This document shows positions 2,954 through 53,510 of a DNA stretch of 64,000 bases, one piece after another (positions within the stretch are counted from its first letter, which is position 1; each line of letters starts with the position of its first letter). This stretch comes from Candidatus Limnocylindrales bacterium (GTDB lineage Bacteria > Moduliflexota > Moduliflexia > Moduliflexales > JAUQPW01), in the NCBI GenBank assembly GCA_035559535.1, contig DATMBG010000022.1, forward strand, positions 192,568 to 256,567. The letters run 5' to 3'. The notes under the pieces are model-generated. The model ran no database searches. It was not told the DNA's origin and worked only from the letters and a program-made list of their open reading frames with translations. Both the position numbers and the translations under genes were made by a program.

Positions 2954-2965
2954 AGGAATAAGCAG

Positions 2966-3138
2966 GAGAGTGTGGGAGTGTGGGAGTATGGAGGTATGGG
3001 AGTAGGGAAGTAGGGAAGTGTGGGAGTGTGGGAGTGTGGAAAGTAAAGTGTTCATACCTCCATACCCCCATACCCCCATACCTCCATACTCCCATACCCC
3101 CATACCTCCATACTCCCACACTCCCGTACTTTCATACC
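2966..3138. repeat. heptamer-repeat palindromic element, copy A1 (G-rich TGGGAGT-like arm / center / C-rich ACTCCCA-like arm)
   Basis: About 10 x 7-nt units RTGGGAG on one side, ~13 nt center, reverse-complement units on the other side. Forms a long imperfect hairpin. Lies between the two mutase subunit genes. Confidence 0.75.
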
Positions 3139-4908
3139 TTAAAAAACGGCGGGATCTTTGTAGTCTCCGTACAATTCTCGAAGTGTACCCATAATTTCCC
3201 CTTCTGTGGCATAAACCTTTACGGCCTCCAAAATCCGAGGCATGAGGTTTTCATTTTTCTCTACCGCCTCTCGTAGTCTATCCAGTGCCTTATCTACTTC
3301 TCTTTGATTTCGGGATTTTTTAACTTCTGCCAATCGTTCCTTTTGTCGGTCTTCTTCTGCCGGGTCGAATTCAAAGACCTCGATGGGTTGTTGAACTTCG
3401 GACTGATAGGCATTTACACCGACGACCAGATAATCCTTTTTTTCGATTTTTTGTTGATACTGATAGGCAGCTTCTGAGATTTCCTTTTCGATATATCCCT
3501 TCTCTATGGCTGTAAGCATCCCTTCGAGCATACTTCCCTTGCCGAGGGTCTCGATTTTTTCTATATACTCTTGGGCTTTTTCTTCCATGGTATTGGTTAG
3601 AGATTCTACGAAATAAGATCCGGCCAGTGGATCAATGGTATTGACGACCCCACTTTCATGTCCGATGATTTGCTGGGTGCGTAAGGATATCATCATGGCC
3701 TCTTCCGAAGGAATATCATAAGCTTCGTCGTATCCACTGACATGGAGAGATTGAGTTCCTCCCAGGACCGCGGCCAGTGCCTGAATGGTTCCCCGGATGA
3801 TGTTATTTTTAGGTTGTTCCCGAACCAGGGTAGAACCCAGGGTCTGGGTATGGAACCGAACCCGCATAGATTCGGCTTTTTTAGCCCCATATCGTTCTTT
3901 CATAATTCTGGCCCACAACCTTCTGGCAGCTCGAAACTTGCTGATCTCCTCAAAAAAATCATTGTGGCAACCGAAGAAGAAGGACAGCCGGGGTGCAAAA
4001 TCGTCTAGGGCGAGGCCGCGTTGAAGACCGCCTTCCACATAAGCCATCCCTTGGGCCAGGGTAAAAGCGAGTTCCTGTACGGCAGTAGACCCGGCCTCAC
4101 GGGTATGATAACCCGAGATGGAAATGGTATTCCAGTTGGGAACATAGCGGGTACAATACTCTACGACATCCAGGGTAATCTTAAAAGCCGGGCGGGGAGG
4201 AAGACCAAAGGTTTTCTGCCCATGGAATTCCTTTAACGAATCGTTCTGGACCGTTCCCCGCAAATCTTCCCATTTAACACCCCGTTTCTCGGCCACAGCC
4301 AATAAAAGACTCAACAACACAATTGCCGGATGGTTGATGGTTAAAGAAATACTCACCCGATCCAGCGGAATTCCTTCAAACAGCTCTTCCATATCCCGAA
4401 GGGTATCAATGGCAACTCCTAATCGTCCCACTTCTCCTTCTGCCAGAGGATGATCTGAATCATAACCTGTGAGAGTCGGATGATCAAAGTCCGTACTAAT
4501 ACCTGTTTGTCCATGCTTGAGAAGGAAGCGGTACCGTTCGTTGGTTGATCGGGCCGTTCCAAATCCGGCAATCTGCCGTCGGGTCCACAGCCGCCCCCGA
4601 TACATGGTGGGATATACCCCTCGGGTAAATGGAAAGGCACCGGGAAAGTTCAGATCCTTCAAATAATCCAGCTCCTTCACATCTTCAGGGGTGTAGACCC
4701 GCTTGACTTCCAGGTCAGAAACAGTTCGAAAGGTTTCACGCTGTTCAGGAGTCTTCTTAAGGACAGGAGCCAGGATCTCCGATTCCCATTTTTCTTGGGT
4801 TTCTTTGATCTGCTCCAGGGCTTTTTCATTAAAAAGTTTAGGGTCCATCTTTAAACCTCCGATTAACAAGGTATTTGGTTTTTTAAATTTCGGCCGTCTG
4901 TCCGCCAT
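3139..4908 (-). CDS. methylmalonyl-CoA mutase family large (catalytic) subunit, split type without B12 domain
   Basis: FTRGVYPTMYRGRLWTRRQIAGFG...TDFDHPTLTGYDSD signature of MCM/ICM catalytic barrel, 589 aa. Co-oriented and adjacent to the separate B12-binding subunit. Confidence 0.85.
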   Translation of the reverse strand: MADRRPKFKKPNTLLIGGLKMDPKLFNEKALEQIKETQEKWESEILAPVLKKTPEQRETFRTVSDLEVKRVYTPEDVKELDYLKDLNFPGAFPFTRGVYPTMYRGRLWTRRQIAGFGTARSTNERYRFLLKHGQTGISTDFDHPTLTGYDSDHPLAEGEVGRLGVAIDTLRDMEELFEGIPLDRVSISLTINHPAIVLLSLLLAVAEKRGVKWEDLRGTVQNDSLKEFHGQKTFGLPPRPAFKITLDVVEYCTRYVPNWNTISISGYHTREAGSTAVQELAFTLAQGMAYVEGGLQRGLALDDFAPRLSFFFGCHNDFFEEISKFRAARRLWARIMKERYGAKKAESMRVRFHTQTLGSTLVREQPKNNIIRGTIQALAAVLGGTQSLHVSGYDEAYDIPSEEAMMISLRTQQIIGHESGVVNTIDPLAGSYFVESLTNTMEEKAQEYIEKIETLGKGSMLEGMLTAIEKGYIEKEISEAAYQYQQKIEKKDYLVVGVNAYQSEVQQPIEVFEFDPAEEDRQKERLAEVKKSRNQREVDKALDRLREAVEKNENLMPRILEAVKVYATEGEIMGTLRELYGDYKDPAVF

Positions 4909-12505: not shown

Positions 12506-12579
<74 letters not shown>

Positions 12580-21862: not shown

Positions 21863-22120
21863 CCTGTCTATCCCTCCTCCCCGGCCCTAAACACCCCCCT
21901 TTACGTCTCTTATTTCTGTAGCGTAATGTAATAAAGTAAGTTAATTTTAAAAATGCTTTTTATATCGGAACAAAACCTGTTTTCCCAAGATTAAGAATAA
22001 TCTATCGAATGGTCTTTATAGGGCCGGGTCAAAGTTAAAATTCATGAACCAATTCCCTTGAGATACGCTATTACACTGTTACCTTAATTTTAGCCTCATA
22101 AAGTAGCTTTCACTTCCCAA

Positions 22121-22245
22121 CGCCCCTCTCCCGCAGCGTGGGAGAGGGGAGAAACTCCCCTTCTCCCGCAGTGACGGGAGAAGGGAGTTGGGGGGCTGAG
22201 GGCAGAGCAAAACACTGCTTCAAATCTAACTTTACAAAGTTAGAA
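22121..22245. repeat. GC-rich palindromic repeat element, family B copy 1 (two tandem hairpins built on CTCCCGCAG..GGGAG)
   Basis: cccctctcccgcagcgtgggagagggg and ccccttctcccgcagtgacgggagaagggag hairpins. Shares motifs with the 40125 and 53060 copies. Confidence 0.6.
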
Positions 22246-22523
22246 AAGTAGGAGATTAAAGGACCTAAATTCTGCTATAAATTCCTGCAAGGGTTATACC
22301 GTTTTGAAAAACAAAGGATAAGTCCAGGATGGGGTGAGCCTGCCCATCGGTTAAACCGTGACCCGGTCGATAAGGAAATTAAAAGATACCCAGGATAAAA
22401 CCCTTAAAGTGCATAAAGGACTATCCACAGCCTGTGATATCCCTTTCCTATTGGGGTAGGGCAAAAGGGTGAGGGTTCCCCTATTCGCCTGGACTCTTTA
22501 ACTTCGGCAGGATGTCCTCCGGC

Positions 22524-27069: not shown

Positions 27070-27180
27070 TAGAAGGGTGGGGGTGTGGGAGGGTGGGGGT
27101 AGATGTAAATTCTCCCATACTTTTACGCTCCTTTCTACCCTTCCATACTCCCATACTCCCACACCCTCATACTTCCCTCT
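27070..27180. repeat. heptamer-repeat palindromic element, copy A2
   Basis: gggtgggggtgtgggagggtggggg / center agatgtaaatt / ctcccatac...ccatactcccatactcccacaccctcatac. Sits in the 112-nt gap between the PEP-CTERM gene and the exosortase gene. Confidence 0.7.
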
Positions 27181-31838: not shown

Positions 31839-32223
31839 CTGCTTAAATCAAGAACCGGAAATCAGAAATCAAAGTACCGGGAGTTAGCCGTTAGCTTGAC
31901 TTCTCACTTCCGACTCCTGGTTCCGTTTGTAACGGTTCGCCCTTACCCCGACCTCCCATAGGCGCCAGGTTAAGGTACCCCCTTCCTGTCCCTCCCCCGT
32001 TTCCCAAGGGAGGGAACTTCACTTCAAAGTTCCTTCCTCTGCCAAGCGGGGGAAGATGAGTAGGTTAAACGTCTCGTTTGACATTAAGGAGACCCTCCTC
32101 AGGGATCTCACTCTTATCCTGGCGCGTAGGCCCCGACCCCTCCTATGCACCGGGATAAGTCCAGAAGGAATTACTTTACTAACCCCAACACCCCCTGCCT
32201 CTCCCATTTGAGGGTTAGAGCTG

Positions 32224-32853
32224 TTATTTTTCTAAATCTTCCAGGGCTTTTAAGAGAGGTTCCAGCGCAGGAGCTTCTCGAATGTCATGGACATCAATAT
32301 AACGAAGGATACCCTGCTTATCCACAACGAATATAGCACGCTCATTGGCCAGTCTCACCTGGTCTGCATAATTTTCATCCCGGAAGATCCCGTACTTTTT
32401 GGCGACTTCATTGTTGAAATCACTTAGCAAGGGATAAGATAATTTAAGGGATTCTGCCCAAACCTTATGGGCGAAGACGCTATCAGCACTTATACCCAGT
32501 ACCTGGGCATTTTTTTCTTCAAACCGGGAAAGTTCTTTCTGGAATGAAGAAACCTGCTGAATTCAAACAGGGGTCCAATCCAGAACATGAAAGGAGAGAA
32601 CGACATTTTTCTTTCCCTTAAACTGGCTTAGAGTAACCTTTTCTTTACCGTCGACTGGCATACTGGCCGGCAGGGTAAAGTCCGGGGCAGGCTCTCCAAC
32701 CTTGAGATGCGTTTGAGTTCTAACCGGAATCCGTTCATCGGCGCTGTAGGCGTAGGGGATCAAGGTACCCAGACTTAACATTAAAATAACTAGTAGGTCA
32801 ATCGTCTTGACAGTCAAATAATGTACTTTTTTTCTCATTCTAGAACTTCTCAA
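32224..32853 (-). CDS. candidate selenocysteine-containing peroxiredoxin (PrxQ/Bcp-like, exported) with in-frame TGA at the peroxidatic Cys position
   Basis: ORFs 32563..32853 and 32224..32430 are in the same frame, separated only by TGA at complement(32563..32565). Translation reads ...VVLSFHVLDWTPV-[TGA]-IQQVSSFQKELSRFEEKNAQVLGISADSVFAHKVWAESLKLSYPLLSDFN..., which is collinear with PrxQ ...DFTPVC-TTE...VLGVS.D....H.AW....L.FPLLSD. N-terminal signal peptide present. Confidence 0.6.
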
Positions 32854-32906
32854 AGGTCAGAAGTCAGAGCAATTCCTGGCTTCTAACTTTTGAGGGTTAA
32901 TAATCT

Positions 32907-40124: not shown

Positions 40125-40250
40125 TGGCCCTCACCCCCAGCTCCCTCCCTCTCCTCCCTCCCCGTCCACGGGGAGGGAGGGGGTGGGAGTGGAGAGGGGA
40201 GTTGGGGAGTGAAAGCAGCCCTATGAGCCAAAATTAGGTAAACAGTTTAC
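40125..40250. repeat. GC-rich palindromic repeat element, family B copy 2 (hairpin plus conserved ggggagtgaaagcaRccctatgagNcaaaattaRgtaaacagt module)
   Basis: ctccctccccgtccacggggagggag hairpin. The 3' module is near-identical to the one at 53100-53150. Confidence 0.65.
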
Positions 40251-42574: not shown

Positions 42575-42688
42575 ACACCCTCCTTATAGTTGCAAAAACA
42601 CCCCTTCAACCCTTTAAGTAAATTTCTAGTCGATATTTATAGTATACCTCTATTTAGACAAAATCCATAGAACTATTTTATTTAAAAG

Positions 42689-42818
42689 TATGGGAGTGTG
42701 GGAGTATGGGGGTAGGGAAGTGGGGAAGTATGGGGGTAGGGAAGTGGGAAAGATAGAACTCCCATACTCCTACACTCCCACACTCCCATACTCCCATACT
42801 CCCACACTTCCACACTCT
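42689..42818. repeat. heptamer-repeat palindromic element, copy A3
   Basis: tatgggagtgtgggagtatgggggtagggaag... / center agatagaa / ctcccatactcctacactcccacactcccatactcccatactcccac. In the divergent promoter region between gltA and the lipoprotein gene. Confidence 0.75.
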
Positions 42819-42841
42819 TACTTAGATTCTATTCGAAGGAC

Positions 42842-48499: not shown

Positions 48500-48610
48500 T
48501 GAGAGTACGGGAGTGGGGAGGTATGGGAGTGTGGGAGTTCTATCTTCCCCACTTCCATACCCCCATACTTCCCCACTCCCATCCTTCCATACTTCCATAC
48601 TAAAAGTATA
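48500..48610. repeat. heptamer-repeat palindromic element, copy A4
   Basis: gtgagagtacgggagtggggaggtatgggagtgtgggag / center ttctatctt / ccccacttccatacccccatacttccccactcccatccttccatacttccatac. Confidence 0.7.
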
Positions 48611-50339: not shown

Positions 50340-50460
50340 TCAAACCCCCAAGGATCCCTTTTGAGACCCGGAGACCCGGAGAAATTTCTCCGCGTCCCCA
50401 TGTCTCCGCGTCTCCGTGTCCCCATGTCTCCGCGTCTCAAAAGGGGTCCTTGGGTCTTCC
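50340..50460. repeat. tandem direct repeats of a ~16-nt unit TCTCCGCGTCYCCRTG (about 3 copies), preceded by an inverted GAGACCCGGAGAAATTTCTCCGCG palindrome
   Basis: Read directly: ccggagacccggagaaatttctccgcgtccccatgtctccgcgtctccgtgtccccatgtctccgcgtctc. Located in a divergent promoter region. Confidence 0.6.
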
Positions 50461-52905: not shown

Positions 52906-53059
52906 AGGAAGGGATGAAAATTAAAATGCCTCTACAGATTTCTTGGATGGGTAGCTCATTCAGGCAGTAAATTAAGGAACAAAGGGATCTTTCAGAAACT
53001 TCCAGAAGAAGAAGGAACAAGTAGTACTTTGTTTACTTAGTTTTGTTTAACGTTTAAGT

Positions 53060-53201
53060 GGCCCTCACCCCCGGCCCCTCTCCCACGCTGGGGAGAGGGG
53101 AGCTGGGGAGTGAAAGCAACCCTATGAGGTCAAAATTAAGTAAACAGTAGTAGGATAACGCTTTAAGATTCTACAGTAGTAGGATAACGCTTTAAGATTC
53201 T
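53060..53201. repeat. GC-rich palindromic repeat element, family B copy 3, plus an adjacent 28-nt tandem duplication (cagtagtaggataacgctttaagattct x2)
   Basis: cccctctcccacgctggggagagggg hairpin followed by the conserved module ggggagtgaaagcaaccctatgaggtcaaaattaagtaaacagt. The direct duplication lies at 53146-53201. Confidence 0.65.
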
Positions 53202-53510
53202 TTTTCCTATCCACCCTGATGCGCAGGGACGATGGGGGTAGTTGGTAGGGCATCCTGAAGGCCGGTACTAAATACGTACCTACCAGCCATCTTTCCTTGT
53301 ATGTACCCGCGGGCTGATCATCGAGGGGTTTATACCTGCAGCCCGCATTTTACAATGTTGGTTCGTGAGAGTAGGCTCCACCTATCTACTCTCACGGCCT
53401 GGAACAGGCCCTGGAGGAGAGAATAAGGTAAGTTTCCCCTCTGAAAGGGAAACCTGACAAATCCCTTTTAGGACGAGGTCTTAGCGACCTCTTCCTCCTG
53501 GGTAGGGGAT

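Follow-up and report, generated by a model that had tools for sequence, protein, structure and literature searches.

The BoxC/PIT/"triplex" motif has been known for about 30 years and occurs in hundreds of bacterial genomes, and to our knowledge it has neither an accepted function nor an accepted dispersal mechanism. Earlier accounts of it were reportedly given by Bachellier et al. in the 1990s and by Hoyne et al. in 2000. Correia and ERIC/IRU elements, two other families of small bacterial repeats, are flanked by TA, and we know of no cognate transposase for either. Here we analysed a 64-kb window (the whole stretch of contig DATMBG010000022.1 under study, 64,000 nt) in which three loci, near 53 kb, 40 kb and 22 kb and labelled c53k, c40k and c22k, are probably copies of one small, non-coding, non-autonomous mobile repeat family that resembles miniature transposable elements with inverted repeats (MITEs) and has a BoxC/TM core. 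The element is 118-235 bp long, and the only open reading frames (ORFs) that overlap copies are chance ones. At new intergenic sites, arms and core are acquired together in one block; the unit can turn end-to-end in place, vary in hairpin number and decay by truncation. As far as seen, the family is confined to one clade of close relatives.

In E. coli, BoxC/TM is intergenic, unbiased by strand and frequent in inverted pairs, and it is tied to small intergenic deletions and local variability between strains (PMC4666352). The strict TM-ECO consensus is CCCTCNCCC-N3-6-GGGNGAGGG-N3-GGGNGAGGG with 9-nt stems, and the E. coli type B reads CCCTCTCCC-TGT-GGGAGAGGG-CCG-GGGTGAGGGC (PMC4666352). Even in E. 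coli no stable triplex forms in vivo, and the spread of BoxC/TM across phyla was left unexplained (Holder et al. 2015, PMC4666352); a search of the literature after that paper found nothing explaining it. Judged by sequence, the prefix-plus-hairpin core of the window repeat is this known BoxC/PIT/TM(ECO) "intrastrand triplex motif". It shares the three-block architecture and comes close in sequence to the C-stem CCCTCTCCC, a loop, the G-stem GGGAGAGGG, CCG (the type-B second loop) and the mirror G-stem GGGTGAGGGC, whereas its stems are 10 nt long and those of E. coli 9 nt, which is why the strict TM-ECO consensus matches neither the window nor the related copies. A relaxed pattern matches at 53062-53099 on the minus strand and in copies from Cupriavidus, Pseudanabaena and Leptolyngbya, and c53k falls within the broader ITxF definition (stems of 6-15 nt, loops of 1-6 nt, one mismatch). 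The same three-block layout, with mismatches, is present in c22k and c40k.

When c53k was compared by BLAST with plasmids, multi-copy matches to the core were obtained in Cupriavidus, Pseudanabaena, Leptolyngbya, Thermus, Tolypothrix and others, and there was no match for the arms or the module (the 45-nt right arm). Core identity is 84-91% over 44-51 nt to the multi-copy Pseudanabaena and Leptolyngbya sequences; to Cupriavidus, with 33 places in a single record, it is 76% over 77 nt. Inspected by eye, the three genera are near-identical throughout the ~40-nt core, loop excepted. The Cupriavidus and cyanobacterial copies read GCCCTCACCCCC-RG-CCCCTCTCCC-loop-GGGAGAGGGG-AGC and are often inverted doublets. 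A 47-nt core query against E. coli chromosomes gave 85-87% identity over ~38 nt with E ~0.7, which is weak for a short query, and these matches are relied on only together with the published table (PMC4666352). Direct reading of the E. coli lldD-trmL doublet shows the same layout as in c22k, itself an inverted doublet. Like BoxC/TM, which is strictly intergenic, without strand bias, arranged in inverted doublets with tails outward, variable in locus between close relatives and pan-phylum, the copies described here are intergenic and equally divided in orientation (3:3). They differ from BoxC/TM in that the core lies inside a larger unit, whose AT-rich inverted arms and 45-nt right arm are unmatched in other phyla, in that the whole unit is gained as a block, and in that the second doublet tail has the fixed decayed form GGGGAGTGAAAGC. 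The prefix and hairpin map to BoxC/PIT/TM and the 45-nt module and AT-rich arms to nothing known; by these comparisons the core is one described before, and what surrounds it, arms and module, is a family of a known kind that is new and specific to this clade. Meanwhile, one BoxC/TM-type unit at positions 151-194 of L022 (Pseudanabaena galeata plasmid pPg_03) stands inside an annotated 4.7-kb "DNA methyltransferase" coding sequence, and would be either an intragenic copy or an annotation running through the repeat.

A full copy consists of TA, an AT-rich left arm, GCCCTCACCCCC, one to three GC hairpins, GGGGAGTGAAAGC, NCCCTATGAGG, YCAAAATTAAGTAAACAGTG and TA. The hairpin unit is CCCCTCTCCC-loop-GGGAGAGGGG, and CCCTATGAGG stands between GGGGAGTGAAAGC and an AT-rich right arm ending in CAAAATTAAGTAAACAGTG. 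An earlier, sequence-only reading of the window had noticed that the 53-kb and 40-kb loci share a prefix and a near-identical module, and both observations hold: GCCCTCACCCCC occupies 53061-53072 and 40127-40138, the first 24 nt of the module, GGGGAGTGAAAGCANCCCTATGAG, recur without mismatch at 53105-53128 and 40204-40227 (0/100 shuffles match), and the 18-nt tail, CAAAATTARGTAAACAGT, is at 53131-53148 and 40229-40246. With three mismatches allowed, this tail is also found on the minus strand at 22075-22092 and 53028-53045. The strong hairpin that was said to accompany the prefix is confirmed for c53k, with the pattern CCCTYNCCC-N3-8-GGGNRAGGG present only at 53076-53099 and 22124-22148 (0/200 shuffles); the hairpin of c40k is long and imperfect. 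The 22-kb locus, described as two tandem hairpins, does have both, yet not hairpins alone: alignment of the reverse complement recovers a full minus-strand copy at 22074-22248, with the module reversed at 22075-22121 and the prefix, as GCCCTCAGCCCC, at 22192-22203.

The boundaries and the symmetry of the element had been drawn too narrowly. c53k begins ~35 nt to the left of 53060, with the AT-rich arm 53027-53060, and the right end lies a few bases beyond ...AAACAGT, at G/T-TA in three of five copies. The module, which had been called non-palindromic, is the right arm of a long imperfect palindrome: left and right arms repeat each other imperfectly in inverted orientation, GGGGAGTGAAAGC inverts the prefix, again imperfectly, and represents a decayed second TM tail, and the whole unit is one long imperfect palindrome. 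The left arm of c53k inverts the right end (TGTTTACTTAGTTTTG versus TGTTTACTTAATTTTG, 15/16), the region 53030-53045 being an inverted copy of 53131-53146. Folded end to end, c53k reaches -62.5 kcal/mol (z = -7.4) and its arms make a 21-bp terminal stem; the remaining copies also fold far better than shuffles, with z ranging over the copies from -7.4 to -4.3. Left arms are of two types, type A in c22k, L014 and L002 and type B in c53k and L019 (95.8% identical), where L002, L014 and L019 are copies from related genomes. The terminal inverted repeats of L019 resemble those of c53k, and those of the type A copies are poorer.

When the window is searched with a profile of the last hairpin plus the module, three copies and no more come out (E between 1e-16 and 1e-22; the nhmmer match of the c53k module has E = 2.5e-22); none would be expected by chance in the 64 kb. 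Scanning genome and metagenome contig collections with AGTGAAAGCNNYYYTATGAN{2,5}AAAATTA gave one true match, L002, and one chance match, L003, within an AT-rich coding region. This pattern is over-strict and misses the copies L014 and L019, whose module reads CGCACTATGA; L019 and L002 both come from the metagenome-assembled genome (MAG) GCA_030550175.1. In a phage collection no match to the repeat was found. A possible fourth copy in the window, not counted here, is seen at 31937-32060, where a TM-tail-like 20-mer (TCGCCCTTACCCCGACCTCC) is accompanied by loose GC hairpins within a stretch of ~1 kb, from opcA to the glucose-6-phosphate dehydrogenase gene (31840-32900), that has no large ORF; it may be a decayed relative of the repeat family.

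Orthologous loci in close relatives were reached via homologues of the flanking proteins. At the c53k site the relatives are L004 and L007 (PilB identity 96% and 89%), at the c40k site L011 (93%) and L012 (87%), and at the c22k site L014/L015, L019/L020 and the outgroup L016-L018. In addition, the Logan short-read contigs L001, L010 and L025 (SRR7882662) provide an independent assembly of the window sample or organism. With the flanks aligned, the c53k block is missing in both L004 and L007. The missing block runs from the AT-rich left arm, which L004 and L007 lack as part of it, past the module and the first copy of a 29-nt repeat. The lengths add up, 124 nt of element, 2 of TA, 29 of duplication and 9 of an unrelated indel giving 164 = 605 - 441, and the empty site of L004, where the same anchors are 17 nt apart, agrees with a duplication of 2 bp and no indel. 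The tandem duplication had been noticed as an exact one of 28 nt; it is exact, with a period of 29 nt (Tandem Repeats Finder, 53144-53201, 2.0 copies, 100%). Its sequence is single-copy in L004, and as the 29-nt unit takes in the element's final 7 nt, c53k inserted either before the duplication or along with it.

The element c40k is likewise absent from the orthologous spacer in L011 and L012 (210 nt versus 106 and 50 nt). Its right boundary lies a few bases beyond ...AAACAGTT, it has no left AT-rich arm, and ~30 nt of the relatives' spacer have no counterpart; it is a truncated copy. Contigs of the independent assembly stop at window position 53058 (L001), where the c53k core starts, and at ~40192 (L025), inside c40k, while L010 reads through c22k, an older copy. 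The outgroup L016 has its own related insertion of ~270 nt between Peripla_BP_2 and DUF58 genes (L016 240-500), with a left arm of type B, CCTCTTACCCCCGGCCCCTCTCCC and three or more GC hairpins, but without a right module that can be recognised; the window genome has nothing inserted at that site, as read from L016-versus-L010 alignment rows.

The c22k site records an older history. Flank identities of 92.8%, 85.5%, 86.1% and ~65% give the tree ((window, L014), L019) with L016 as the outgroup. The element is in forward orientation with two hairpins in the window, reversed with one hairpin in L014/L015 and forward with one hairpin in L019/L020, and the site is empty in L016-L018. The c22k and L014 elements are 87.5% identical, no closer than unrelated copies, and on a first reading of this value the two were taken to be non-orthologous; that reading was overturned once L019 and the outgroup L016 were included. 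The modules of L014 and L019 are 93.5% identical though oppositely oriented, and both contain GAAAGCCGCACTATGA. Moreover, GGGAAGTGAAAGC is common to all three occupants of the site, where c53k, c40k and L002 have GGGGAG. We read the c22k site as one old insertion with mosaic arms, in which the whole element probably flipped later in the L014 lineage. Recombination inside the terminal repeats was considered as the cause of the flip and ruled out, because the swap takes in even the outermost bases of either arm. Across the family, arm types combine mosaically with module variants, the number of hairpins per copy is one, two or three, and the modules of c53k, c40k and L002, which are at unrelated loci, are 90-92% identical. 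The positions of the features in the window are listed in Table 1.

Table 1. Positions of the three repeat copies and their parts in the 64-kb window.
Feature	Position	Strand	Remarks
Element end sequences			ACTGTTTACTTARTTTTG...CAAAAYTAAGTAAACAGT
Putative target-site TA, c53k left	53025-53026	.	Read from sequence; partner at 53151-53152
c53k left AT-rich arm, type B	53027-53060	+	Holds terminal inverted repeat TGTTTACTTAGTTTTG at 53030-53045
c53k core, BoxC/PIT/TM	53061-53100	-	Reads CCCCTCTCCC-CAGCGT-GGGAGAGGGG-CCG-GGGGTGAGGG-C
c53k right arm ("module")	53101-53150	+	AGCT + GGGGAGTGAAAGC + AACCCTATGAGGT + terminal inverted repeat CAAAATTAAGTAAACAGTAG
Exact 29-nt duplication, 2 copies	53144-53201	+	Spans junction of element right end and flank; Tandem Repeats Finder
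c40k, left-truncated	40127-40247	+	Tail GCCCTCACCCCC 40127-40138; imperfect GC hairpin ~40141-40203; module 40204-40246; TA 40248-40249
c22k, full copy	22074-22248	-	Type A left arm 22204-22248; tail GCCCTCAGCCCC 22192-22203; module 22075-22121
c22k hairpins	22156-22188, 22123-22149	-	Two
c22k flanking TA	22072-22073, 22249-22250

Of the features used to recognise MITEs (PMC10969869), a length below 500 bp, no coding capacity, terminal inverted repeats of ~4-30 bp and presence and absence at orthologous sites are found here; of AT-richness combined with a transcript able to form a stable stem-loop, the stem-loop is seen throughout the copies and AT-richness in the arms only. The same review describes truncated copies, decaying direct repeats, stable stem-loops and the in-place inversion of Correia elements. 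The Correia elements of Neisseria and the ERIC/IRU elements of Enterobacteria resemble the window repeat as imperfect palindromes of ~100-200 bp with terminal inverted repeats that are intergenic and strain-polymorphic, and Correia elements share in-place inversion with it (PMC10969869); they differ in having no sequence similarity to it, and here no integration host factor (IHF) site or promoter was detected and the centre is a GC-rich BoxC/TM. The pneumococcal BOX element (boxA-boxBn-boxC; Croucher et al. 2011, PMC3049150) is alike in its pairing end modules round a variable number of internal modules, in size variation at the same locus between strains, in its long stem-loop and in its MITE-like inverted ends. 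There is again no sequence similarity, the host phylum is another one, and the internal modules are palindromic GC hairpins here as opposed to the 45-nt boxB.

If the three loci are indeed MITE-like copies, a transposase encoded elsewhere in the genome would move the element in trans, recognising the inverted ends and inserting at TA. The hairpin number might then change by slippage or by recombination between the near-identical palindromes, and arm types might be exchanged between copies by gene conversion. Effects on neighbouring genes, such as an RNA hairpin at a transcript 3' end, would be a side-effect and not the reason for the family. Target-site duplications, which the sequence-only reading had left to be looked for, may be represented by TA, which stands at both ends of c53k and of c22k/L014, and at the right end of c40k, L002 and L019.

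Several points weigh against a MITE-like family. A TA duplication is not distinguishable from an extension of the inverted repeats (TAC...GTA), and the one informative empty site (L004) offers a 2-nt length argument. Good terminal repeats are found only in c53k and L019, since pairing with the right arm is poor for left arms of type A, and the centre is GC-rich, unlike that of typical AT-rich MITEs, the arms alone being AT-rich. The copies known in total are seven. No transposase was found in the 64-kb window (Pfam on large ORFs, annotation via related loci) or in the fetched loci, and no parent insertion sequence bearing these ends was found. The breaks of the independent assembly could instead come from poor sequencing of extreme GC hairpins. 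For BoxC/TM itself, Holder et al. (2015, PMC4666352) reported no mobility genes (transposase, integrase) nearby and ascribed presence and absence to local instability.

This last view leads to an explanation without a transposon, in which the presence, absence and inversion of a BoxC/TM-type palindrome result from replication errors that the hairpin or triplex induces, from illegitimate recombination and from gene conversion between copies, and the arms are flank co-copied by gene conversion. The core is the motif that in E. coli is tied to small deletions without a nearby transposase (PMC4666352), the arm types are mosaic and the hairpin number variable, the 29-nt duplication at the c53k junction is of the slippage type, and the c40k site shows a replacement of ~30 nt and not a clean insertion. 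To these comes the lack of a transposase in the window and the fetched loci. However, at c53k a discrete unit of 124 bp, its inverted ends defined, has been cleanly gained, and the site is empty in two separate lineages, so that a deletion would need to have happened twice, precisely. The 90-92% identity of the modules of the young copies c53k, c40k and L002 at unrelated loci likewise indicates copying to new sites and not loss alone. In addition, the flip in L014 takes in the outermost bases of both arms, which recombination within the arms would not. We therefore regard instability without transposition as rather unlikely, and retain a MITE-like family as the probable explanation.

It was also proposed from the letters alone that the loci form either a small RNA (sRNA) gene family or a miniature mobile element; the second half of this proposal fits the data and the first is unsupported. 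Among the outcomes named beforehand as refuting it, a match to a known repeat family has come about in part, for the prefix and hairpin but not for the module and arms. A functional RNA would mean that the 45-nt module is an sRNA or a cis-acting element of the 3' untranslated region, with the GC hairpin as stabiliser or terminator, kept for its function. The module is indeed the best conserved part (90-92% among c53k, c40k and L002), the truncated c40k retains it, no copy is more than a few hundred nt away from a gene end, and MITE-derived sRNAs occur in Coxiella (PMC10969869). A conserved module is also expected of a transposase-binding end, however, and no Rfam family reaches its threshold for any copy. 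At gathering thresholds the sole pass in the window is a tRNA (12506-12579), and permissive searches return only eukaryotic miRNA-precursor models, sub-threshold generic hairpin matches of 23-33 bits against thresholds of 55-107; a known RNA family was rejected on this ground. The promoter scan found no sigma-70-like site within any copy, and the terminator scan calls none of the element hairpins. Close to the copies the terminator scan has a single match, a weak stem in which the stop codon and the right arm of c40k come together. An intrinsic terminator or promoter was accordingly rejected, no T-run following any GC hairpin and no promoter-like site being present, in agreement with the earlier remark that the repeat is not a simple terminator; in E. 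coli, PIT motifs showed activity neither as promoters nor as terminators (PMC4666352). Three copies (c53k, c22k and L019) are in sense orientation to the upstream gene and three (c40k, L014 and L002) in antisense, and sister lineages have the copy at the c22k site in opposite orientations. At two of the three sites the element is missing from close relatives, and no sequence there compensates for it. Mixed orientation, the missing promoter and Rfam match, the flip and the absence from close relatives argue against an sRNA gene family, and a functional RNA of either type seems to us highly improbable.

Scarcely probable, finally, is a REP/REPIN-type repeat on whose single-stranded hairpins a RAYT (a Y1, IS200/IS605-like transposase) acts in place of a MITE moved by a DDE enzyme: as short GC-rich extragenic palindromes, often in inverted pairs at gene 3' ends, REP/BIME/REPIN sequences do recall the repeat, whose tail-plus-hairpin inverted doublets with tails outward, seen in c22k, Cupriavidus, Leptolyngbya and E. 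coli, have the REPIN layout, whose hairpins of 24-33 nt are within REP size and which has GTAG next to three of six element ends, outside the AT-rich arms (c53k left, c40k right, L002 right), whereas the GTAG/CGTC tag defining most REPs (PMC3733652) is absent beside the GC hairpins (flanked by CCCCGG/AGCT, CCAGCT/GAGTT and similar), no Y1/RAYT transposase gene is in the 64-kb window or the fetched loci, and the c53k gain includes on each side a long non-palindromic AT-rich arm of ~35-50 nt, foreign to REPs and REPINs.

For annotation, these repeats are not genes, and short-read assemblies break at them. Three of four sites differ between close relatives (c53k, c40k and the L016-specific insertion) and could serve as strain markers; at the fourth, c22k, every close relative has an element and the outgroup alone has none. 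BoxC/TM is seen here to be gained within a unit bounded by inverted repeats, which gives a testable hypothesis for the dispersal of the motif, and the "genomic instability" round BoxC/TM might alternatively be read as insertion, excision and inversion of a mobile element. Tentatively, and with low confidence, it can be suggested that the BoxC/PIT/"triplex" motif is in general the structural core of TA-inserting, inverted-repeat-bounded MITEs with clade-specific arms, the 37-nt motif of E. coli being an arm-decayed remnant. If so, the carrier described here would be intact and recently active, and the transposase could be found, as could an explanation of why the core is conserved across phyla; the core might be conserved, for example, as a hairpin needed by the transposition machinery.

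All three window loci are intergenic, as had been stated. They were also described as downstream of genes, which is correct, yet two of them are at the same time upstream of a following co-directional gene. c53k is between convergent genes, one for a PilB-type ATPase fused to a receiver domain and one for a BFN-domain nuclease. c40k begins 11 nt past the stop codon of an NAD-dependent dehydrogenase gene and ~80 nt before a rhodanese gene on the same strand, and c22k stands between yjbQ and the gene of a BNR/FG-GAP repeat protein. Among named homologues of the PilB-receiver protein, the best belong to candidate division KSB3/Modulibacteria (50-53%), and the single Limnocylindrales-labelled match has 43%; the Candidatus Limnocylindrales (Chloroflexota) label of the source MAG agrees poorly with these homologues.

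Beside c53k, an intergenic block at 53290-53480, downstream of both convergent genes, is near-identical in the 96% relative, well conserved in the 89% relative and absent in a 73% relative. It contains a sigma-70-like promoter on the plus strand (53329-53356), a 10-bp stem (GTGAGAGTAG...CTACTCTCAC) and a terminator-like hairpin (53430-53455), and shows one compensatory pair among three sequences and no Rfam match; the block is a candidate sRNA of ~100 nt. A separate repeat family is found at 2960-3140, 27127-27178, 42680-42825 and 48500-48604, where octamer arrays (GGGAGTRT)n face (AYACTCCC)n and form long hairpins with arms of up to 131 nt that are 76-91% complementary; presumably these are the first repeat family of the sequence-only reading. 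Between the DUF2064 gene and an unannotated ORF there is a perfect 31-nt GC-rich inverted repeat (AAACACCCCCCTGGCCCCCCTCCAGGGGGGA; 14212-14242/14265-14295) with a 22-nt spacer. Just upstream of the pilB-receiver gene, at 50347-50454, a 36-nt inverted repeat (86% complementary) surrounds repeats with an 8-nt period (TCTCCGCG / TCCCCATG).

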